From a virus (Duplodnaviria > Heunggongvirae > Uroviricota > Caudoviricetes), in IMG/VR virus record IMGVR_UViG_2548876698_000017: a stretch of 34,976 nucleotides of DNA; one strand, written 5' to 3'. The notes below the pieces were generated by a model. That model did no database searches. It worked only from the letters and a program-made list of their open reading frames with translations, and was not told where the DNA came from. This document shows positions 2,513 to 33,804 of the stretch, in pieces; positions within the stretch are counted from its first letter, which is position 1; each line of letters starts with the position of its first letter. The position numbers and the translations under genes are program-made.

Positions 2513-3159
2513 GCTGCACGCTCCCGCCCCTGGTTGTCTGTTGGTGACAGCGGAGCATTGCTGAATGCATTTGTTAATCCGCCAATATCCAACGCGTATC
2601 CAGGGTGTAGTTGCACTGCCGGGTCTTCGCACTGATTACCCCAAACATCGAAACCATGAGACGACTGGCGGGCGAACAGTTCAATGCGAGAAACATCGCC
2701 TAACAATTGCACAAGTTTTTCACGAACGATATCTGGTTTTCTTGAATGCTCAAGCCGCGGTGCGGTAAATGACTGAACGATCCCTGCATTAATGCGCGTA
2801 GGTAGTTTTCCCTTTACCGCAAACAGGCAATCTTCACTATTGGCGCGAGTCATGTGCCCCATACCCATAACCAGTTTATCTGGTTGTCGACTACCACATT
2901 TTATCCACGTGAAGCCCTTCATGGTCATCAGACGGAATCCCCAGGCTTCAACAACTTTTAGTGCTTCGAGTGGTTGTGTTGGCACCCACCACATGGCCAA
3001 CAGACAGTTTTCATCGGCCAAATCCCACACAGGAAGGCGGCAGATATCCAGCACACTCATAACCGGATATTTAAAACCGGCACCGCGATTACCATCTGCG
3101 GCTTTGTCCCGGTATACCCAGGGTGGATCTGCATAGATTAGTGTGTATTTCTTAGTCAT
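2509..3159 (-). CDS. MT-A70 family DNA N6-adenine methyltransferase (phage Dam-like orphan MTase)
   Basis: 216-aa ORF; N-terminal LIYADPPWVY (DPPW catalytic motif) and GFDVWGNQ region typical of MT-A70/phage adenine methyltransferases. GGGGTGG RBS upstream of the ATG. Confidence 0.85.
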   Translation of the reverse strand: MTKKYTLIYADPPWVYRDKAADGNRGAGFKYPVMSVLDICRLPVWDLADENCLLAMWWVPTQPLEALKVVEAWGFRLMTMKGFTWIKCGSRQPDKLVMGMGHMTRANSEDCLFAVKGKLPTRINAGIVQSFTAPRLEHSRKPDIVREKLVQLLGDVSRIELFARQSSHGFDVWGNQCEDPAVQLHPGYALDIGGLTNAFSNAPLSPTDNQGRERAA

Positions 3160-3451
3160 AAACCACCCCGCAACATCCTATGCCGCTATAGTCGCCACGG
3201 CGAAGGCCGTTACCTTTTGTGATACATTGGTCCCTGCGAACCGCGATCCTTGCACGCTCAACATCACCAGAAGCAACATCCATACACTGAAGCCAAAGGT
3301 GGGCGGCAATGCGGAACTGCCCTTTTTTCTCTCTTTCAATCGCGCGTTTTTCGATCTCTATCGCCGCAGGAGTAACGGCAACAACCTTTGAAGGGCTGCG
3401 CATTGAAACCTTGTTCATGTGATATTTTTCAAGTCGGCTTAACTTTCTCAC
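3152..3451 (-). CDS. Hypothetical protein; 3' end overlaps the methyltransferase start by 8 bp
   Basis: 99-aa ORF with GTG start at 3451 (alternative ATG at 3418); no strong RBS for either. First gene of the apparent operon; no recognisable family. Confidence 0.35.
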   Translation of the reverse strand: MRKLSRLEKYHMNKVSMRSPSKVVAVTPAAIEIEKRAIEREKKGQFRIAAHLWLQCMDVASGDVERARIAVRRDQCITKGNGLRRGDYSGIGCCGVVYD

Positions 3452-6009: not shown

Positions 6010-6090
6010 AACTTGTTGCCTCGGCCTGTTATCGTTGAGGTAATAATTATGCGTATCTGGTTTGATGTCAATAGATATGAGTTAAAAAAA

Positions 6091-6162: not shown

Positions 6163-6747
6163 TTATTGTTTGTTTTTTTCGTTCTGGTTGATGACAAATT
6201 CAATGTAACTTTCGATCTTTGCTTTCTCGGTTTCGGGTAACAATGCGTAGCGCGAGCGATCATAGTTGATGGTCGCAGGGTCGTGCGGGTGAATCAGTAA
6301 TTCATAGCCGTGACGCCCGAATGCGGATGCAACATTCTCCAGGGTGGAAATGGAAACGCTGACCTCATTGTTTAACAGGCGGCTGATTGTCACTTGGGCG
6401 ACGCCGGATGCGCGGTGTAGTTTTCCCTGCGTTGAAAGGTCGCGGCTTTCGCTCATCCAGCGTTCCAGGTTGTGAGCCGCCAGCTGACCTATATCGCTCG
6501 GGCCGACAGGCTGAAAACCCTCCTGAGAAAGCGAGCGATCAATATCAAGCCAGTTACGGGGTTTATTGGCGGCAGCTTCAATTTTTCGTGCAACCTGGTC
6601 GCCGATAACCTTCTTGCCAAGAGCCCAGCGGTTTACCAGATTTGCCTGAGTTCCAAGTTTTTCTGCCATCCGCGTCTGAACACCATTGAATTCACGGTCG
6701 ATCAAGTCGTTGAGATTTTGCCTGCGGACGTCCTGGATACTTTTCAT
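6163..6747 (-). CDS. Putative prophage immunity repressor with two HTH regions and no LexA-like peptidase domain
   Basis: 194-aa ORF divergent from a Cro-like gene with three operator palindromes between them. HTH-like segments MAEKLGTQANLVNRWALGKK and ASGVAQVTISRLLNNEVSVSISTLENVASAF; no S24 peptidase motif seen. Confidence 0.6.
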   Translation of the reverse strand: MKSIQDVRRQNLNDLIDREFNGVQTRMAEKLGTQANLVNRWALGKKVIGDQVARKIEAAANKPRNWLDIDRSLSQEGFQPVGPSDIGQLAAHNLERWMSESRDLSTQGKLHRASGVAQVTISRLLNNEVSVSISTLENVASAFGRHGYELLIHPHDPATINYDRSRYALLPETEKAKIESYIEFVINQNEKNKQ

Positions 6748-6802: not shown

Positions 6803-6817
6803 TTACCCAACAGGTAA
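6803..6817. promoter_or_regulatory. Operator-like palindrome TTACCCAACAGGTAA (perfect)
   Basis: First of three sites in the 154-bp repressor/cro intergenic region. Confidence 0.65.
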
Positions 6818-7154: not shown

Positions 7155-7178
7155 GACCGCCACCCGGCGGTCTTTTCA
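7155..7178 (+). terminator. Intrinsic terminator after the cro-like gene
   Basis: GACCGCC-ACCC-GGCGGTC followed by TTTTCA. Confidence 0.6.
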
Positions 7179-7187
7179 TATCTATTC

Positions 7188-7202
7188 GTACCTCAAAGGT
7201 AA
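7188..7202. promoter_or_regulatory. Operator-like site GTACCTCAAAGGTAA (one mismatch)
   Basis: Immediately after the cro terminator, upstream of the small zinc-binding gene and O-like gene. Confidence 0.45.
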
Positions 7203-9133: not shown

Positions 9134-9148
9134 TTACCTGTTAGGTAA
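9134..9148. promoter_or_regulatory. Operator-like palindrome TTACCTGTTAGGTAA (perfect)
   Basis: Intergenic region after the P-like gene, upstream of the DUF1064 gene. Confidence 0.55.
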
Positions 9149-11909: not shown

Positions 11910-12997
11910 TCACTATTACCAAAGAGCGACTGCTGACAATCAAGGAGTGGCGCGAAACATACGGACCTGGTAGCAACGTTGTACTGCCAGCAGAAGAAGC
12001 GGAAGAGCTGGCACGGATTGCGCTGGCATCACTGGAAGCAGAGCCGATAGCAATGGTAGTGCCTGATGAAATGGATTTGCTTACCTGCCATCTCGACGGT
12101 GTAACTAAAACATATGCTGATGGCTGGAACGCCTGCCGCGTCGCCATGCTTCAGGCCGGAAACTTTCGGGAAAATAAGAATTCGTCAATCAATAATTTTC
12201 GGATAACCTCGGAAACGTCAACCAACTCTCCGGCAATCCCTGATGAGGTGTTGTCCGCAATCCTGAAGGTCGCCAGGGTTCGTGCAGATTTCGATGCTTC
12301 TGAAGGTGACAGGCGAGGTATCGGTGATTGTCTGGATGAGGCTGAGCAAGAGCTTATCGTTACCATTAACAAACATGCCAGTCAGTTGGCAGCAGGACCG
12401 ATAGCGCCTAATGACGTTCGAGAGCAAACAGCCGTTCCGCCAGTTCCTGTAATACAGGCTGATGTCGCGCAGGCAATTGAAAAACTCAAACGGAAATTAG
12501 TGGAATGCAATCGCTATAACTACTGCGCAGATGCAGTTAAGGGCGTAGAGGATGCCTGCCACGCTGCCATGCTTCAGGGTAGCCAACCTGTAAGCCAAAC
12601 TTACAAGTTGCCAGTTAATACACCTTGCCAGGATGCGCCAGCCCATATCTGGCTGCAAACAGCTGGAGTATGGCCAGAAGATGGCGAGTTAAGCGAATTA
12701 ACGTGGTGCAGCCACAATCAGCACCATGATGACACGCTATATGTTCGAGCTGACTTGGTAAATGGCAATTCTCCGGTAACTCCGGATGGTTGGATAAGCT
12801 GTAGTGAGCGAATGCCGGATGATGGTCAGCACGTAATTATTTTATGTGATGGCGCATTCGTTCTTTATGCGCAATATCGAGACGGTGAGTTTTTTGATGT
12901 AGTCCGTAATGGTGATGAATTTTTCGAAACACAGAGCCGCAATGTAACCGACTGGATGCCGCTACCAGAACCGCCGCAGGAGGTTAACCATGGCTAA
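11906..12997 (+). CDS. DUF551-domain protein
   Basis: 363-aa ORF; C-terminal GWISCSERMPDDGQHVIILCDGAFVLYAQY...VTDWMPLPEPP matches the DUF551 signature common in lambdoid nin regions. Confidence 0.6.
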   Translation: MITITKERLLTIKEWRETYGPGSNVVLPAEEAEELARIALASLEAEPIAMVVPDEMDLLTCHLDGVTKTYADGWNACRVAMLQAGNFRENKNSSINNFRITSETSTNSPAIPDEVLSAILKVARVRADFDASEGDRRGIGDCLDEAEQELIVTINKHASQLAAGPIAPNDVREQTAVPPVPVIQADVAQAIEKLKRKLVECNRYNYCADAVKGVEDACHAAMLQGSQPVSQTYKLPVNTPCQDAPAHIWLQTAGVWPEDGELSELTWCSHNQHHDDTLYVRADLVNGNSPVTPDGWISCSERMPDDGQHVIILCDGAFVLYAQYRDGEFFDVVRNGDEFFETQSRNVTDWMPLPEPPQEVNHG

Positions 12998-13271
12998 CCT
13001 GCAACTTGCCGTCAAAGGTGAATACTTCGATGCCATGATTCGCGGAGAGAAAACGGAAGAGTATCGCCTGTGTAATGACTACTGGAAAAAGCGCCTCGTT
13101 AACCGTAAGTATGACCGTCTGATTATCACAAAGGGATATCCGAAGCGCGACGACTCCAGCCGCAGAATTAACGTCCCGTATGACGGATATGAAATCAAGA
13201 CAATCACACATCCCCACTTCGGTGATAAACCGGTAAAGGTGTTCGCGATAAAGGTAAATATTGATGGCTAA
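12990..13271 (+). CDS. Small ASCH-like/PUA-fold hypothetical protein (tentative)
   Basis: 93-aa ORF (LAVKGEYFDAMIRGEKTEEYRL...ITKGYPKRDD...ITHPHFG); pattern resembles small ASCH-domain phage proteins. Stop overlaps next start. Confidence 0.4.
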   Translation: MANLQLAVKGEYFDAMIRGEKTEEYRLCNDYWKKRLVNRKYDRLIITKGYPKRDDSSRRINVPYDGYEIKTITHPHFGDKPVKVFAIKVNIDG

Positions 13272-13602
13272 ATCAGCAGCAGAGCGCAAAGCCGCTCAGA
13301 GAGCCAGACAAGCTGCATCTGGTGTGCGTAAGCTGGAAATTGTGCTTGATGCTCAGGAAATTGAAATGCTGGAGCGTAACTGTGCCACGCGTCGCCCCGG
13401 GCGTGCGCCTTACGAATTTGGTGAGTATATAGCGTTACTGATCCGCCAGGATGATGCACGCGTGCGCGGGCGTATAAAATCGATCAGCAGAAAACGTTGC
13501 GGTAAGTGCGGCGAGAGAGTTCCAGTTAATTCATGCCCGTGCAATGGTGACTCGCAATGCTGGGTGACTAAAGGCTGGCATGAAACGAAATTAATAGTGT
13601 GA
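13264..13602 (+). CDS. Zinc-ribbon hypothetical protein just upstream of the late-operon terminator (candidate late regulator)
   Basis: ATG at 13264 (MAKSAAERK...); C-terminal CGKCGERVPVNSCPCNG zinc-ribbon motif. Stop codon lies inside the 12-bp palindrome GTGACATGTCAC. Confidence 0.45.
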   Translation: MAKSAAERKAAQRARQAASGVRKLEIVLDAQEIEMLERNCATRRPGRAPYEFGEYIALLIRQDDARVRGRIKSISRKRCGKCGERVPVNSCPCNGDSQCWVTKGWHETKLIV

Positions 13603-13610
13603 CATGTCAC
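13599..13610. promoter_or_regulatory. Perfect 12-bp palindrome GTGACATGTCAC
   Basis: Overlaps the stop codon of the zinc-ribbon ORF and lies about 40 bp upstream of the terminator preceding the terminase genes. Confidence 0.4.
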
Positions 13611-13651
13611 GAGTGGATTATGCATGATGAATTTGATGTGTTTTGAATACT

Positions 13652-13678
13652 GCCGCCAACTATGGCGGCTTTATTTTG
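13652..13678 (+). terminator. Intrinsic terminator immediately upstream of the terminase genes (tR'-like position)
   Basis: GCCGCC-AACTAT-GGCGGC followed by TTTATTTTG. Confidence 0.65.
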
Positions 13679-13723
13679 CATGGTACTATTACCACAACGG
13701 TAACTATTACCACGGTGGTTATG

Positions 13724-14317
13724 ATGCCTGCTGAACCTAAAACCTATAAACGCAAATCAACGCAATTTAAGCCACTAACAGCAATGCAGGAGGCTTATTG
13801 CCAGTCATACATCAAAACGCCTGAAAACCAGACTCAGGCAGCGATTAACGCAGGATTCTCCCCAAATACAGCGGCAGTTAAAGCCAGTGTCATGATGCGC
13901 GATGAACGCATTCAAAAACGGATTGCCGAGTTGATGGAGGAGCGCAACAAACGAATGCGCGTCAGTGCTGATTACGTTCTCATGCGCCTGGTGGAGATCG
14001 ACCAGATGGACGTGATCGATATCCTCAACGACGATGGGAGCCTTAAACCAATCCGTGAGTGGCCGAAAATCTGGCGCACTACGCTTAGTGGCTTTGATCT
14101 GTCATCGACCATCATGAACATGAACGAGGATTCGATAGAGACAATCCTCAAAAAAATTAAATGGCCTGACAAGGTGAAGAACCTCGAACTGATTGGTAAG
14201 CACGTCGACGTCAACGCATTCAAAGAACGCCTGGATGTTAATGTGAATGTGACAATTGCTGATCGCATAGCGGCAGCCAGGAAGAGACTGAAAGAACGTC
14301 AGGATGGCAATCAGTGA
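13724..14317 (+). CDS. Terminase small subunit (Terminase_2-like)
   Basis: Listed ORF 13643..14317 would include the intrinsic terminator hairpin; I prefer ATG at 13724 (MMPAEPKTYK...). KPLTAMQEAYCQSYIKTPENQTQAAINAGFSPNTAAVKASVMM matches the TerS N-terminal DNA-binding pattern. GTGA overlap with TerL start. Confidence 0.7.
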   Translation: MPAEPKTYKRKSTQFKPLTAMQEAYCQSYIKTPENQTQAAINAGFSPNTAAVKASVMMRDERIQKRIAELMEERNKRMRVSADYVLMRLVEIDQMDVIDILNDDGSLKPIREWPKIWRTTLSGFDLSSTIMNMNEDSIETILKKIKWPDKVKNLELIGKHVDVNAFKERLDVNVNVTIADRIAAARKRLKERQDGNQ

Positions 14318-15789
14318 CAGATACAGCGTTATCTCCTGAAGAGCAGTTAATCGAGGATATTGCAGGGTTCACTCACGATCCGCTTGGCTATGCCCTCTAT
14401 GCGTTCCCGTGGGGGGAAGAGGGTACTGAACTGGCACATGCCACCGGTCCACGTCAGTGGCAGGCCGATGCGTTCCGAGAGATACGTGATCACCTGCAGA
14501 ATCCAGAGACGCGATATCAGCCGCTTATGCTGTCACGTGCTTCTGGTCACGGTATTGGTAAATCCGCATTCATCTCAATGCTGATCAACTGGGGCATGTC
14601 CACTTGCGAGGATTGTAAGGTCGTGGTGACCGCCAACACCGACAACCAGCTACGAACGAAGACTTGGCCGGAAATTATCAAGTGGTCGAACCTTGCTATC
14701 ACGAAAGACTGGTTTACCTGTACCGCTACCGCGATGTACAGCAATGACCCTGGGCACGACAAGCGGTGGCGAGCTGACGCAATCCCCTGGTCTGAGCACA
14801 ACACTGAGGCATTCGCCGGACTACACAACGAGCGCAAACGCATCATCGTGGTATTCGACGAAGCATCCAACATTGCCGATCTGGTGTGGGAGGTAGCAGA
14901 GGGTGCGCTGACGGACGAAGACACTGAGATTATCTGGGTGGCATTCGGAAACCCTACACGTAACACCGGGCGTTTCCGCGAATGTTTCCGCAAATATAAA
15001 CACCGCTGGAAAACTGCGCAGATTGACAGCCGGACGGTGGAAGGCACTAACAAACAGCAGTTGCAGAAATGGGTTGATGACTACGGGGAAGACAGCGACT
15101 TCGTTAAAATCCGTGTGCGCGGCATATTCCCGGATGCATCTGAATTGCAGTTTATCCCTACCGGCCTTACTGACGAGGCAATGAAACGGGTGGTAACCGC
15201 TGCGCAGGTTGCACATGCTCCGGTGATAATCGGCGTTGACCCGGCATACTCCGGCGTTGATGACGCTGTGATATACCTGCGGCAGGGGCTGCACAGTAAG
15301 GTGCTATGGACTGGTAACAAGACCACCGACGATCTGATTATGGCGAAGCGTATCGCTGACTTTGAAGACCAGTATCAGGCTGACGCGGTGTTCATCGACT
15401 TCGGTTATGGAACCGGTTTGAAGTCAATCGGTGATGGCTGGGGACGTACATGGCAACTTGTTCCGTTCGGCGGTGCGTCCACTGACCCGCAGATGCTTAA
15501 CAAGCGTGGGGAGATGTTCAACTCATGTAAGACATGGCTGAGGCTGGGCGGCATGCTGGATGACCAGGAAACTGCAGACGACCTGTCGGCGGCAGAGTAC
15601 AAAGTTCGTGTGGACGGTAAAATCGTTATCGAACCGAAGGAAGATATCAAAGAGCGTCTTGGGCGTTCTCCTGGTAAAGGCGATGCGCTACTGCTGACGT
15701 TTGCTTTCCCGGTCTCGAAACGCATAAATATACCAGGACAGCAAAGCCAGCAGGGAAGGGCCATAACGGATTATGACCCTTATGCTTAA
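14314..15789 (+). CDS. Terminase large subunit
   Basis: 491-aa ORF; Walker A-like SRASGHGIGKS, Walker B-like IIVVFDEAS, C-terminal nuclease region; position immediately after TerS. Confidence 0.9.
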   Translation: MTDTALSPEEQLIEDIAGFTHDPLGYALYAFPWGEEGTELAHATGPRQWQADAFREIRDHLQNPETRYQPLMLSRASGHGIGKSAFISMLINWGMSTCEDCKVVVTANTDNQLRTKTWPEIIKWSNLAITKDWFTCTATAMYSNDPGHDKRWRADAIPWSEHNTEAFAGLHNERKRIIVVFDEASNIADLVWEVAEGALTDEDTEIIWVAFGNPTRNTGRFRECFRKYKHRWKTAQIDSRTVEGTNKQQLQKWVDDYGEDSDFVKIRVRGIFPDASELQFIPTGLTDEAMKRVVTAAQVAHAPVIIGVDPAYSGVDDAVIYLRQGLHSKVLWTGNKTTDDLIMAKRIADFEDQYQADAVFIDFGYGTGLKSIGDGWGRTWQLVPFGGASTDPQMLNKRGEMFNSCKTWLRLGGMLDDQETADDLSAAEYKVRVDGKIVIEPKEDIKERLGRSPGKGDALLLTFAFPVSKRINIPGQQSQQGRAITDYDPYA

Positions 15790-15832: not shown

Positions 15833-15867
15833 AAAACAAAGCCAGCTCATAGGCTGGCTGTTTGTGA
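15833..15867. terminator. Bidirectional intrinsic terminator between convergent TerL and moron genes
   Basis: AAAACAAA-GCCAGC-TCATAG-GCTGGC-TGTTTGT: hairpin flanked by an A-run and a T-rich run. Confidence 0.6.
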
Positions 15868-15879
15868 CATGCCACGGTG

Positions 15880-16251
15880 TTATTGCTCGCTTAACTTCTG
15901 CTTCAGCAAGTAACCTTCGAGCATCCAGATTTTGTTTACAGCATTCTGCCGGGCAATCTTCCGACCAATTTCTGCATCAAAATTTTCCGGACTTGCACAG
16001 GAACTCTCTCCGGTGACGGTGAAGCCGTTGCGCAGCACCAGGACGCAGAACGTCAGCAGAGAAAGTGATTCGTGCGGCTGGTAGTTTACCTCTCCGCCAG
16101 TATGTTTCGCTTTTATGGCTTTGCCAAAGGCACCATCTTCTGCTGTGAAATATGCCTCCTGAGCAATAATGCCTTCGATATGGTCTGGCGTAACGCGCGG
16201 TGCCGTTTTGCCTTTCTCAACGATTTCTTTTTCGATTTGCTGGTCGTTCAT
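15880..16251 (-). CDS. Moron: Gp49-like (N4 gp49/Sf6 gp66-type) hypothetical protein (tentative)
   Basis: 123-aa ORF convergent with the terminase genes; AGGTGA RBS. Family assignment from recalled pattern (LLTFCVLVLRNGFTVTGESSCASPENFDAEIGRKIA) and is tentative. Confidence 0.45.
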   Translation of the reverse strand: MNDQQIEKEIVEKGKTAPRVTPDHIEGIIAQEAYFTAEDGAFGKAIKAKHTGGEVNYQPHESLSLLTFCVLVLRNGFTVTGESSCASPENFDAEIGRKIARQNAVNKIWMLEGYLLKQKLSEQ

Positions 16252-16261
16252 AATCTCACCT

Positions 16262-16285
16262 TAAAAAAATGCCCGGCGAACCGGG
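16262..16285 (-). terminator. Terminator-like hairpin downstream of the tRNA, immediately upstream of the moron RBS
   Basis: GCCCGG-CGAA-CCGGGC followed on the minus strand by a run of seven T. Confidence 0.5.
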
Positions 16286-16449
16286 CGAACTGGAAGCAAT
16301 GAGTTATGCCTTCCGTGGCTGTACGGGTTTACAGCATGAAGTCATCGCAATGGCGTCCTGCTGTAAAAAGGGCGGTGATAGTCCTTCAAGGGAAACTATC
16401 ACCGCCAAGCACCTGGAACTTCTGGCATCACGGTCCTTAGGCGTGATTC

Positions 16450-16526
16450 TGGCGTGGCATGCAGGATTCGAACCTGCGACCAACCGCTTAGAAGGCGGTT
16501 GCTCTGTCCAACTGAGCTAATGCCAC
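16450..16526 (-). tRNA. tRNA-Arg (anticodon UCU, reads AGA)
   Basis: Minus-strand 77 nt: GTGGCATTAGCTCAGTTGGACAGAGCAACCGCCTTCTAAGCGGTTGGTCGCAGGTTCGAATCCTGCATGCCACGCCA. Folds as a cloverleaf with 7-bp acceptor stem, GGTTCGAATCC T-arm, anticodon loop CTTCTAA and encoded 3' CCA. Confidence 0.9.
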
Positions 16527-16848: not shown

Positions 16849-16863
16849 TTACCTGAAAGGTAA
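16849..16863. promoter_or_regulatory. Operator-like palindrome TTACCTGAAAGGTAA (perfect)
   Basis: Noncoding region between the tRNA and the 6.7-like/portal genes, about 90 bp upstream of the first structural ORF. Confidence 0.5.
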
Positions 16864-18854: not shown

Positions 18855-19147
18855 CAGATTACGAAGACGATCAACTGAAAGAAGAAAACGCCCGTAAGCA
18901 ACGTGACATGGCACAGCGTGAAATTGATGACATTCGCTTTGTCATGAGCAGTGAACAGGGGCGTCGCGTTGTCTGGTCTGTGCTGGAGAAAGGCCGGGTG
19001 TTTTCCGCTATCTCTCCGATGGATGCTATGGCAATGGCATTTAATGAGGGGCAACGCAATCTGGCGCTGGAACTGTTTCAGCGCGTTATGGCTCATTGCC
19101 CTGAACAGTATTTGAAGATGGCCAAAGAGGCCAGTGAACAGGAGTGA
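18851..19147 (+). CDS. Hypothetical head-assembly protein
   Basis: 98-aa ORF between portal and scaffold; overlaps the portal stop. Confidence 0.45.
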   Translation: MTDYEDDQLKEENARKQRDMAQREIDDIRFVMSSEQGRRVVWSVLEKGRVFSAISPMDAMAMAFNEGQRNLALELFQRVMAHCPEQYLKMAKEASEQE

Positions 19148-19149
19148 TC

Positions 19150-19845
19150 ATGAATTTATTTGAGCGTTTGCTGTATCGCCGTCTTTGCAATGAGCAACCA
19201 GTCGATGGTGGAGCAGCTCCGGCTGCGTCAGAACCGTCAGCGCCTGCAGGTGATAACCCTGCTCCAGTTGGTGATCCATCACAACAGGAAGGTGATAAGC
19301 CACAACCTGTTGCTGATGGCGATAAACCTGCTGATGACAAAAAGCCTGAAAACGATAAGCAGGATGAAAAAAAGGACGGCGATAAACCAGAGGGTGCGCC
19401 TGAGAAGTACGAGTTTCAGGCTGCCGAAGGCGTAGAGCTGGATACAGAAGCGTTGAAGGAGTTCGAGCCGGTGGCGCGAGAACTTAACCTGACCAACGAG
19501 CAAGCGAAAAAGCTGGTTGATGTTTATCCGAAGATTCTGGCAGGTGTGCAGCAGCGCCAGGCAGAAGCCTGGCAGAAAACAACCGAGCAGTGGGCTGCTG
19601 ATGTAAAAGCTGACAAAGAAATCGGTGGCGACAAGTTGATTTCTAACCTTAGCGCCGCACAGCGTGCGCTTGACCAGTTCGGGACACCTGAACTCAAAGA
19701 ATATCTGAACACCACCGGACTGGGTAATCACCCTGATCTGGTCAAAACGTTCGTGAAAATCGGAAAGGCGATGTCTGAAGATGGCATGGTCACCGGTGGT
19801 AATGAAGGCCAGCGTAGTGCGGCCGAAGTGCTCTATGGCAAATAA
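19150..19845 (+). CDS. Scaffolding protein (acidic, low-complexity N-terminus)
   Basis: ATG at 19150 with AGGAG 6 nt upstream; Pro/Asp/Lys-rich N-terminal segment and helical C-terminal region; sits between portal and major capsid gene. Confidence 0.6.
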   Translation: MNLFERLLYRRLCNEQPVDGGAAPAASEPSAPAGDNPAPVGDPSQQEGDKPQPVADGDKPADDKKPENDKQDEKKDGDKPEGAPEKYEFQAAEGVELDTEALKEFEPVARELNLTNEQAKKLVDVYPKILAGVQQRQAEAWQKTTEQWAADVKADKEIGGDKLISNLSAAQRALDQFGTPELKEYLNTTGLGNHPDLVKTFVKIGKAMSEDGMVTGGNEGQRSAAEVLYGK

Positions 19846-33127: not shown

Positions 33128-33424
33128 ATGCAAGCTATAGGATTCATTGTTTATATCGTCGTTGGTCTTTTTCAGTTGGCAGCAATTATGGCTGGGCTTG
33201 AATCATGGTGGGGATTGCACTGGATAATTGCAGCCCCCATTGCTTTCATCGTGAGCTATATTCCATTTGTTGGAGCGATTGTTGGTATGGTTGGCGCTGT
33301 GGATGTATGGCGGTGGGAGTGGTGGCAGGCTGGCCTTCTCTTCTTTGGTGGGATCATCTTTGCTATTGTCTGCGGTGGAATGTCATCATTTTTCGAATGG
33401 CTATCATTCAGAAAAGGGACGTGA
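33128..33424 (+). CDS. Small integral membrane protein with about three hydrophobic segments (holin-like or exclusion-type moron; function unknown)
   Basis: 98-aa ORF (MQAIGFIVYIVVGLFQLAAIMAGL...WIIAAPIAFIVSYIPFVGAIVGMVGAV...LLFFGGIIFAIVCGG); lies between ejection-protein genes and the tailspike; no adjacent endolysin. Confidence 0.5.
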   Translation: MQAIGFIVYIVVGLFQLAAIMAGLESWWGLHWIIAAPIAFIVSYIPFVGAIVGMVGAVDVWRWEWWQAGLLFFGGIIFAIVCGGMSSFFEWLSFRKGT

Positions 33425-33455
33425 CATGTCACAGGCCGCTTTCGCGGCCTTTTCT

Positions 33456-33713
33456 TTATGTGGTTTGTTTTCGTAATTGTTCGGCACAATAGTCGAGATG
33501 TGTTTGCAGATCCTGCATAGACATCTGTGAGCTGGTGACGTAGTTAATCAGTGCAGTCAGTTCGGCAAGTGGGCCATCGACATTAAATCCATCCTTATCG
33601 AGATCCCGGAGTAATTTCATCAAGTGCGATCCCTCCACCAGTGACCTGACGCCTCCCGGCGTGTGAATCCTTTCGGTAAATCCGTCTTCCAGTGGATAGT
33701 GATACTGCTGCAT
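33456..33713 (-). CDS. LexA-box-associated small protein (candidate SOS-induced antirepressor or other SOS moron)
   Basis: Listed ORF 33456..33731 starts at TTG; I prefer ATG at 33713 (MQQYHYPLEDG...) with GGAGAAG RBS. A near-consensus LexA box lies 22-37 bp upstream of that ATG. Confidence 0.55.
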   Translation of the reverse strand: MQQYHYPLEDGFTERIHTPGGVRSLVEGSHLMKLLRDLDKDGFNVDGPLAELTALINYVTSSQMSMQDLQTHLDYCAEQLRKQTT

Positions 33714-33732
33714 CTTATCTTCTCCATGCAAT

Positions 33733-33752
33733 AACTGTATAAATATACAGTA
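33733..33752. promoter_or_regulatory. LexA (SOS) box AACTGTATAAATATACAGTA
   Basis: CTGT-N8-ACAG with AT-rich spacer, close to the consensus TACTGTATATATATACAGTA; 22-37 bp upstream of the preferred ATG of the 33456..33713 minus-strand ORF. Confidence 0.8.
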
Positions 33753-33789: not shown

Positions 33790-33804
33790 TCACCTGAAAG
33801 GTAA
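33790..33804. promoter_or_regulatory. Operator-like site TCACCTGAAAGGTAA (one mismatch; ACCTGAAAGGTAATA is shared with the 16849 site)
   Basis: Between the LexA-box gene (minus) and the tailspike gene (plus). Confidence 0.45.

Follow-up and report, generated by a model that had tools for sequence, protein, structure and literature searches.

A predicted repressor-controlled terminase promoter and a conserved operon-end palindrome linked to a ribbon-helix-helix protein in an epsilon15-type prophage

Several described systems resemble parts of the locus analysed here, the closest being phage epsilon15, in which a gene of the same family (gp49), an intrinsic terminator, an ATTACC-N5-GGTAAT operator and the terminase genes terS and terL follow one another. 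In the GenBank record of epsilon15 (NC_004775) this inverted repeat is annotated as 'repressor', with one copy at 12-27, about 20 nt before terS, and gp49 is labelled merely 'transcriptional regulator, similar to N15 gp46'. The lambda Q cassette likewise combines a small regulator at the end of an early operon with a linked DNA site and a terminator before the late genes, and an earlier note on the present DNA had read the locus as a candidate late switch resembling this Q-qut-pR'-tR' layout. Another type of control is represented by SPC32H, whose lysis-lysogeny switch reportedly consists of a repressor, Rep, and an antirepressor, Ant. In mycobacteriophage L5, dispersed repressor-type sites known as stoperators are bound by gp71, and the bound protein blocks elongation within transcription units or at their ends. 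Ribbon-helix-helix (RHH) repressors such as P22 Arc, Mnt, CopG and antitoxins combine a small size with a palindromic operator and linkage between the gene and its site. Finally, the E. coli protein MatP, which also has an RHH domain, has as its site the 13-bp matS, GTGAC[AG]N[TC]GTCAC, with the consensus GTGACATTGTCAC (PMC3603311, PMC8669397), and a passage in a further paper describes MatP as confined to enteric bacteria (PMC7188993).

The stretch of DNA analysed here (34,976 nucleotides in all, referred to as the window) is an epsilon15/phiV10/TL-2011b-type (Uetakevirus-like) prophage. A megablast search with positions 12900-14400 found 97-98% identity to the Escherichia phages PAS61, O157 typing phages 9 and 10, TL-2011b and phiV10, and the gene order of the window is shared by TL-2011b and epsilon15. 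From the left end, this order runs through an integrase, a leftward early operon, the repressor gene and a rightward early operon ending at 13602, after which come terS, terL, the portal gene and the structural genes. The locus under study is the junction of the early-right and terminase operons, a known arrangement of epsilon15-type prophages, and its features are collected with related ones in Table 1. The terS start at ATG 13724 lies 45 nt past the U-tract of the terminator, with an alternative ATG at 13721. From the letters of this junction the earlier note had singled out a small, regulator-like zinc-ribbon ORF at 13264, a 12-bp perfect palindrome overlapping its stop codon, a strong terminator about 45 bp before terS and a direct repeat present twice within 13685-13713, all of which we found at these places.

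Table 1. Positions of the features discussed in the text.
Feature	Position	Strand	Basis or remark
Prophage repressor Rep, SPC32H type	6163-6747	-	PDB 5D50 chain A, E = 4e-42
Gene for the 112-aa ribbon-helix-helix + zinc-ribbon protein, phrog_536	13264-13602	+	Last gene of the early-right operon
Palindrome site A, GTGACATGTCAC	13599-13610		Holds the TGA of the 112-aa gene; putative binding site of its product
Intrinsic terminator closing the early-right operon	13652-13678	+	Fold and conservation; epsilon15 annotation 39646-39672
Predicted extended -10 promoter of the terminase operon, TGgTACTAT	13681-13689	+	Invariant columns in 8 diverged loci
Predicted Rep operator O1, ATTACCACAACGGTAAC	13688-13704		Core 13689-13703; perfect motif match; same as epsilon15 'repressor' sites
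Predicted Rep operator O2, TTACCACGGTGGTTA	13707-13721		1 mismatch; overlaps Shine-Dalgarno GGTGG, 13714-13718
terS, terminase small subunit gene	13724-14317	+	Pfam Terminase_2, E = 1.1e-29; start aligned to epsilon15 and TL-2011b
Palindrome site B, GTGACATGCCAC	15864-15875		1 mismatch; flanked on one side by the terL stop and its hairpin, on the other by the stop of a convergent moron gene
Palindrome site C	33421-33432		Perfect; includes the TGA of the final gene in the structural operon; epsilon15 ortholog at 19517
Antirepressor Ant homologue	33456-33731	-	PDB 5D50 chain E, E = 1.7e-47

To compare the region upstream of terS, we aligned 8 diverged loci consisting of the window, epsilon15 and prophages of Citrobacter, Superficieibacter, Rahnella and Samsonia. 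While the flanks were variable, the columns TG and TA..AT (together TGnTAnnAT) and the inverted repeat ATTACC-N5-GGTAA were invariant, with TGtTATGAT and TGtTAGTAT among the -10 variants of the other loci. The first of these blocks is a predicted promoter of the extended -10 type, which has no recognisable -35 element and was missed by a simple promoter scan. Transcription from it would be predicted to start at about 13696, giving a 25-nt leader that contains O2 and the Shine-Dalgarno sequence, and we infer that this promoter is in use. O1 overlaps both the end of the -10 element and the predicted start site. The direct repeats (ACTATTACCAC, at 13685-13695 and 13703-13713) proved each to be half of an inverted repeat, TTACC-N5-GGTAA, and the epsilon15 equivalent of O2 (at 30-44, unannotated in the record) carries one mismatch as well.

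Allowing at most one mismatch, TTACC-N5-GGTAA occurs 11 times in the window against 0.57 expected. Copies flank the repressor gene, at 6029 and 6091 on its left and at 6803, 6851 and, more weakly, 6820 between it and a cro-like gene, and they precede each transcription unit, with further sites at 7188, at 9134 and 9196, at 13689 and 13707, at 16849 before the portal operon and at 33790 before a second tailspike-like gene. The window also encodes homologues of both Rep and Ant, and a LexA box, CTGT-N8-ACAG, lies at 33735-33750, just upstream of ant. It therefore resembles SPC32H in its Rep, its Ant, the LexA box at ant and the operators that flank the repressor gene and are scattered before operons, including those at the immunity region and at terS. 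It differs in that Rep control of the terminase promoter is, for the window, a prediction from sequence. The repeats at 13685-13713 are thus inferred to be Rep operators of the OL/OR type, at which Rep is predicted to bind. The earlier note had offered packaging or promoter function for them; they lie on the predicted promoter and are neither packaging signals nor an activator site.

Since these operators are fused to a predicted promoter past the terminator, de-repression, with LexA acting on Ant and Ant on Rep, is the most likely way for the terminase operon to be turned on, rather than antitermination. The suggestion of an unrecognised antiterminator in late control was not supported: in all 8 loci a conserved predicted promoter fused to the Rep operator stands downstream of the terminator, and late transcription need not cross the terminator at all. 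The terminator itself consists of a 7-bp stem with six G-C pairs (GCCGCCA/TGGCGGC, 13652-13669), the loop ACTA and the tail TTTATTTT, which runs to about 13677. As RNA it folds with -16.7 kcal/mol (z = -3.6 against shuffled sequences), and in relatives it is kept together with terS, one G-C pair being replaced by a compensatory A-T pair. The gap between the palindrome and the terminator is about 19 bp longer in the window than in epsilon15.

We next consider the last gene of the early-right operon. Its ORF runs from ATG 13264 to TGA 13600-13602 (113 aa if read from TTG 13261), and its start overlaps the stop of the preceding 93-aa ORF. The 112-aa product belongs to phrog_536 (E = 1.6e-54), while searches of Pfam and NCBIfam gave no family at curated thresholds and just 154 relatives were found among 1.8 billion cluster representatives. 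A high-confidence structure model has the beta-alpha-alpha fold of RHH proteins, with a conserved basic helix at the N-terminus and a Cys-rich domain at the C-terminus. In an alignment of 51-52 family members C79 and C82 are invariant, R8, R13, E54, L59, P87, G95 and C99 are conserved in at least 90%, and the fourth Cys varies in position (C91/C93). Foldseek against the PDB returned no significant match. The protein does not have a C4 zinc finger of the DksA/TraR type (PF01258) following a long helix, and no Pfam match to Ogr_Delta, the domain of the P2 Ogr/Delta activators, was found in it; the Yersinia P2-like phage that carries a homologue also has a separate regulator in the ogr position. 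We conclude that the 112-aa protein is a DNA-binding, regulator-like protein and not a Q protein.

The family was seen in phages and prophages of Enterobacterales, Vibrio and Aeromonas, with one exception in an Advenella-labelled MAG (L021), whose locus is closely similar to Rahnella loci. Epsilon15 gp49 is about 77-79% identical to the 112-aa protein of the window, and lower identities were found for N15 gp46 (35%) and for the homologues of the Yersinia P2-like phage (40%) and of Vibrio siphophages (31%). A proteomics paper on the telomere phage NAR688 reported 'gp46' in lysogens; NAR688 encodes a homologue of the 112-aa protein, which we do not equate with that 'gp46' because the record is unannotated.

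The conservation of the palindrome on the stop codon of this gene, GTGAC-N2-GTCAC, was analysed in two sets of loci. In 141 of 160 loci from epsilon15-like, N15-like and P2-like phages, a set that takes in relatives of the window and of N15 among viral contigs, the palindrome lies on the stop codon of the homologue; in the other 19 it is either nearby (8 loci) or absent (11 loci). Altogether, 275 palindromes were found in 2.65 Mb of related loci against 2.5 expected, a count that overstates the number of independent observations because many of these loci are near-identical. The second set consisted of 21 prophage loci on contigs, one genome per species, with 54-87% protein identity, and here the palindrome was on the stop or else a few to about 200 nt downstream. 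It was kept when off the stop (L009, L011, L018, L022), when the downstream gene was not terS, and when a moron lay between it and the terminator. Across these 21 loci the terminator and the operator-promoter travelled with terS, and the palindrome travelled with the 112-aa gene; the exceptions were one locus with the gene and no site A (L017) and one with terS and no preceding terminator (L005). The arms of the palindrome are constant, whereas the central two bases vary (AT, AC, CT, AG, TG, GC).

The same linkage was seen in more distant phages. The stop codon of N15 gp46 carries GTGACTGGTCAC and that of the Yersinia P2-like homologue GTGACGCGTCAC, while in Vibrio siphophages the palindrome lies not on the stop but about 230 nt downstream of the gene. 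Lambda and P2 have neither the gene nor any perfect palindrome, and no palindrome was found near Providencia homologues in which the beta-strand reads IPQWQVE instead of RKLEIVL, a hint of covariation. A 5-N2-5 palindrome present twice is unremarkable if only the window is considered, as 59% of Markov simulations gave some arm with at least two copies, so the case rests on comparative data. Those data make the palindrome a genuine cis element, conserved and linked to the 112-aa gene, and it is probably the binding site of the 112-aa protein. Such a site would set the family apart from other RHH repressors, in that the putative operator stands at the 3' end of its own gene and at operon ends rather than at a 5' promoter, and the protein also has an added C-terminal Cys-rich domain and N-terminal basic helix.

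Three perfect palindromes per genome were found in epsilon15 (39612, 2142, 19517), N15 (39269, 33237, 28550) and Vibrio phage K233 (33227, 35942, 21342). In phages of the epsilon15 type, each of the three rightward transcription units ends at one of the sites A, B and C, next to a terminator. Site B, 28-75 nt past terL, adjoins the terminator hairpin of a convergent moron gene, and it is perfect and in the same place in epsilon15, in L005, L006, L009, L011 and L013 and in most close relatives. Site C is followed directly by a terminator (33433-33450) and then by the convergent ant gene. A further near-match in the window, GTGACATGGCAC at 18903, was set aside as probably due to chance because it is within a coding region and the equivalent position of epsilon15 has no match. 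The palindrome is unannotated in the epsilon15 record, and a literature search for the site A sequence found it in no paper.

These positions bear on the alternative that the 112-aa protein is a new Q-like antiterminator, which would load onto RNA polymerase at the palindrome and let it read past the terminator to the terminase genes. The gene does occupy the place of lambda Q as the last early gene ahead of the late genes, it is co-inherited with the palindrome as Q is with its binding element, and in most epsilon15-type loci the terminator follows site A by 20-65 nt. In addition, GTGACA is -35-like and a scan matched GTGACA-18-CATGAT at 13599-13628. However, this match scores 9 of 12, which is chance level (9 such matches found against 9.3 expected from shuffles), and it is unconserved in relatives, so the palindrome was rejected as a -35 element. 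The interval between the palindrome and the terminator contains no conserved promoter; its sequence is unconserved, and in relatives it is interrupted by whole morons that bring LexA-box promoters of their own. Instead, the conserved promoter stands after the terminator. If sites B and C were of the Q type they would direct antisense read-through into terL and the structural genes, and with copies at the ends of three operons in each genome, and convergent genes opposite two of these, the palindrome is unlike a Q-binding element. N15 has, besides its gp46 homologue, a separate gp40 annotated as 'late transcription activator' and regarded as a putative Q-like antiterminator in published work on telomere phages. 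The fold of the 112-aa protein is RHH rather than Q-like, and the earlier note was correct that no Q-family protein is recognisable, none having appeared even among weak Pfam and NCBIfam matches. A Q-like role is, in our judgement, very unlikely. Of the lambda layout, the regulator, the linked site and the terminator survive; the window parts from it in having no Q homology and neither a conserved promoter nor a sigma-dependent pause at the site, in its conserved late promoter past the terminator and in its three operon-end sites per genome.

It was also considered that the palindrome might not be bound by the 112-aa protein at all and might be a target of a host factor or of some other phage protein, a recombination signal at module boundaries, or part of terminase recognition (pac). 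Sites A and B bracket terS-terL, one palindrome of Vibrio K233 lies 19 nt before terS and adjoins an HNH gene, and the palindromes coincide with junctions that carry differing morons, all of which would suit such functions. Against this, the palindrome follows the gene into N15-like and P2-like phages, which have other terminases and packaging modes and in which the sites are not near cos or terS, and it is missing from lambda and P2 and where the beta-strand of the homologue is altered. Three copies per genome also misfit a unique pac or cos, and together with the N15 and P2-like contexts they led us to discard a packaging signal. We regard a palindrome independent of the 112-aa protein as quite unlikely.

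The arms GTGAC and GTCAC are identical to those of matS, and the host range of the family, apart from the Advenella-labelled exception, may be set beside that passage in which MatP is said to be confined to enteric bacteria. Both points would suit a view of the 112-aa protein as a phage MatP-like organiser, one that bridges or marks the three matS-like sites so as to fold or insulate the genome, or that disturbs host MatP, matS and MukBEF. However, the spacer is 2 bp instead of 3, making the phage site 12 bp rather than 13, and the window has no 13-bp matS even with one mismatch; phage genomes have about three sites each. No family member matches the Pfam models of MatP (PF06303, PF17414), and hhalign gave a probability of 0.8% against a MatP side made up of near-identical E. 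coli proteins only, with no profile; on these two results homology to MatP was rejected. MatP ranked 30th among the RHH matches, and the model of the 112-aa protein has a zinc ribbon in place of the four-helix bundle and C-terminal coiled coil. Since a relation at the sequence level is undetectable, the half-site identity is kept as a resemblance and not as membership of the MatP family, and we consider a MatP-like organiser improbable.

Another possibility is that the 112-aa protein is an upstream activator, class I-like or looping, of the Rep-controlled late promoters, acting from palindromes 60-1000 bp upstream. These promoters have no -35 element, and sites B and C precede the operators at 16849 and 33790. 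The distances from site A to the -10 element (59.5, 61.5, 78.5-80.5 and 90.5 bp) are loosely in helical phase and would put the site at about -72, -92 and -102, on roughly one face of the helix; such phasing could be a sign of upstream activation. However, with about four independent spacings and a phase spread of about 4 bp the helical argument is weak, and in some relatives morons of 200-600 bp separate the palindrome from the promoter. Extended -10 promoters usually act independently of activators. In N15 a palindrome lies 12 nt ahead of the gp47 ATG, and in Vibrio K233 two palindromes each lie 19 nt ahead of an ATG, one of them that of terS. Here there is no space for a downstream promoter on which an activator could act, and a repressor or roadblock fits better. 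We consider upstream activation unlikely.

The reading that we tentatively favour, and to which we would give somewhat less than an even chance, divides the junction into three modules: the terminator, a Rep-controlled terminase promoter that is turned on by de-repression, and the 112-aa protein (called gp49 here, after its epsilon15 homologue) with its palindrome as a repressor or roadblock. The hairpin at 13652-13678 would end early-right transcription and so insulate the terminase promoter from the early operon. In the lysogen, Rep bound to O1 and O2 would keep the terminase promoter shut. DNA damage would inactivate LexA, allowing Ant to be made and to remove Rep from the DNA, and the terminase promoter would then fire with the other promoters under Rep control (PL, PR and those at 7188, 9134/9196, 16849 and 33790). 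Made at the end of the early operon, gp49 would bind the palindromes as a repressor or roadblock, thereby curbing its own synthesis and keeping polymerase from crossing the boundaries between units. This boundary function of gp49 is speculative. Several observations count against the favoured reading: a strong terminator follows site A at 40 nt, which makes a roadblock look redundant, site B has a mismatch in the window, 19 of the 160 loci have no palindrome on the stop codon, L017 and L005 depart from the linkage, and the terminase promoter has no recognisable -35 element. Candidate roles for gp49 are a boundary or roadblock repressor, an upstream activator, a terminator modulator and a DNA organiser.

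A broader version of the boundary idea is that gp49 and gp46 represent an unrecognised class of phage site-specific boundary factors, acting as a roadblock or terminator modulator or as a MatP-like site-bridging insulator, with the matS half-site due to common ancestry or to mimicry. We see this as unlikely. A parallel is offered by L5 gp71, which is alike in that repressor-type sites throughout the prophage act beyond the immunity promoters. The proteins and motifs are unrelated, and the window would split the task, with Rep operators at the starts of units and palindromes at their ends.

The terminator, the Rep operators and the de-repressed terminase promoter are ordinary components, and the terminator and the repressor site are already annotated in epsilon15. 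What is new is the pairing of a small DNA-binding protein with a conserved, matS-like 12-bp palindrome that accompanies it. This pair is widespread, occurring in epsilon15-like podophages, N15-like telomere phages, P2-like myophages and Vibrio siphophages, and it would place a repressor-type site containing the half-site of host matS at the 3' ends of operons. If the predicted Rep control is correct, this phage group governs its structural genes directly through the lysogeny repressor and not through a Q-type cascade, which would be useful for the engineering of reporter phages of the phiV10/epsilon15 type and for predicting induction. Elsewhere in the window, a PerC-family activator gene on the minus strand at 3152-3451 is a further candidate regulator.

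A second composite of terminator and Rep operator (a site of the SPC32H-type repressor) was found in the window after the cro-like gene, reading GACCGCCACCCGGCGGTC TTTT and then GTACCTCAAAGGTAA at 7188. This composite mirrors the arrangement upstream of the terminase small subunit gene, terS, and suggests a repeated design in which transcription units would be restarted under Rep control.

The region between the palindrome and terS may also hold traces of morons. Flanked by the site A palindrome and the terminator is a mini-ORF (ATG CAT GAT GAA TTT GAT GTG TTT TGA) whose product would be MHDEFDVF. Among related loci carrying a homologue of the 112-aa ORF, L009 has MTDEFDGF at the equivalent position, and L006 has a complete moron ORF ending in ...FDDEFKLI immediately ahead of the same terminator. 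From its sequence, the mini-ORF looks like the leftover 3' end of a deleted moron. In several relatives varied morons separate the palindrome from the terS promoter, each with a promoter (TTGAC-N17-TATACT) overlapped with a LexA box (TACTGT-N8-ACAGTA); one of them encodes a UmuD-like N-terminus (GFPSPAADY). A further moron block, in reverse orientation, lies in the window with terL on one side and the portal operon on the other.

Coordinates of morons and other features in the window and related loci
Feature	Locus	Coordinates	Strand	Remark
PerC-family gene	window	3152-3451	-	Pfam E = 6e-7; phrog_868
Terminator and Rep operator	window	7156-7202		after cro-like gene
Mini-ORF	window	13621-13647		
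Reverse moron block	window	15880-16526	-	
Phage_gp49_66 family gene	window	15880-16251	-	in reverse block; Pfam E = 4.6e-34
Strong terminators	window	16406-16371, 16286-16271	-	in reverse block
tRNA-Arg(TCT)	window	16450-16526		in reverse block
Site C gene	window	33128-33424		phrog_3075, function unknown
Morons 3' of palindrome	L005	3340-3800		
Morons 3' of palindrome	L006	3340-3740		
Morons 3' of palindrome	L011	3540-4000		
Morons 3' of palindrome	L012, L014			
TerL insertion	L008	4291-5253		
Palindrome in repA	N15 (L027)	33237-33248		
gp46 homologue	NAR688 (CP072507.2)	40826-41149		

The palindrome recurs elsewhere. N15 carries a perfect GTGACTGGTCAC within the 5' third of its replication gene repA, as do about 45 N15-like viral contigs at the equivalent position. 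It is kept in all N15-like relatives examined, and its distance to the gp46 homologue varies from 4.3 to 7.1 kb; this internal copy may serve control of repA expression. In the window, palindrome site C falls on the stop codon of the final gene ahead of the convergent antirepressor gene ant; the hydrophobic 98-aa product of this final gene is probably a membrane protein.

The Klebsiella telomere phage NAR688 encodes a homologue with 80% identity to N15 gp46. Proteomics detected a 'gp46' as one of only nine phage proteins in growing lysogens (PMC12042878). If the two are the same protein, the gp49/gp46 family, to which the 112-aa ORF belongs, is expressed in the prophage state.

TerL of the relatives L008, L017 and L020 contains an in-frame insertion of 321 codons within the Walker A motif (GHGIGK / ALRPDD...IVTHN / SAFISM at its borders), which is absent from the window's own TerL. 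This insertion is very probably an intein, given that it includes a LAGLIDADG-like stretch and ends in a C-terminal His-Asn with Ser as the next residue.

Lastly, the early-left operon of the window includes a gene for a PerC-family transcriptional activator, a homologue of epsilon15 gp31; this protein is another candidate for regulating genes of the phage or of the host.
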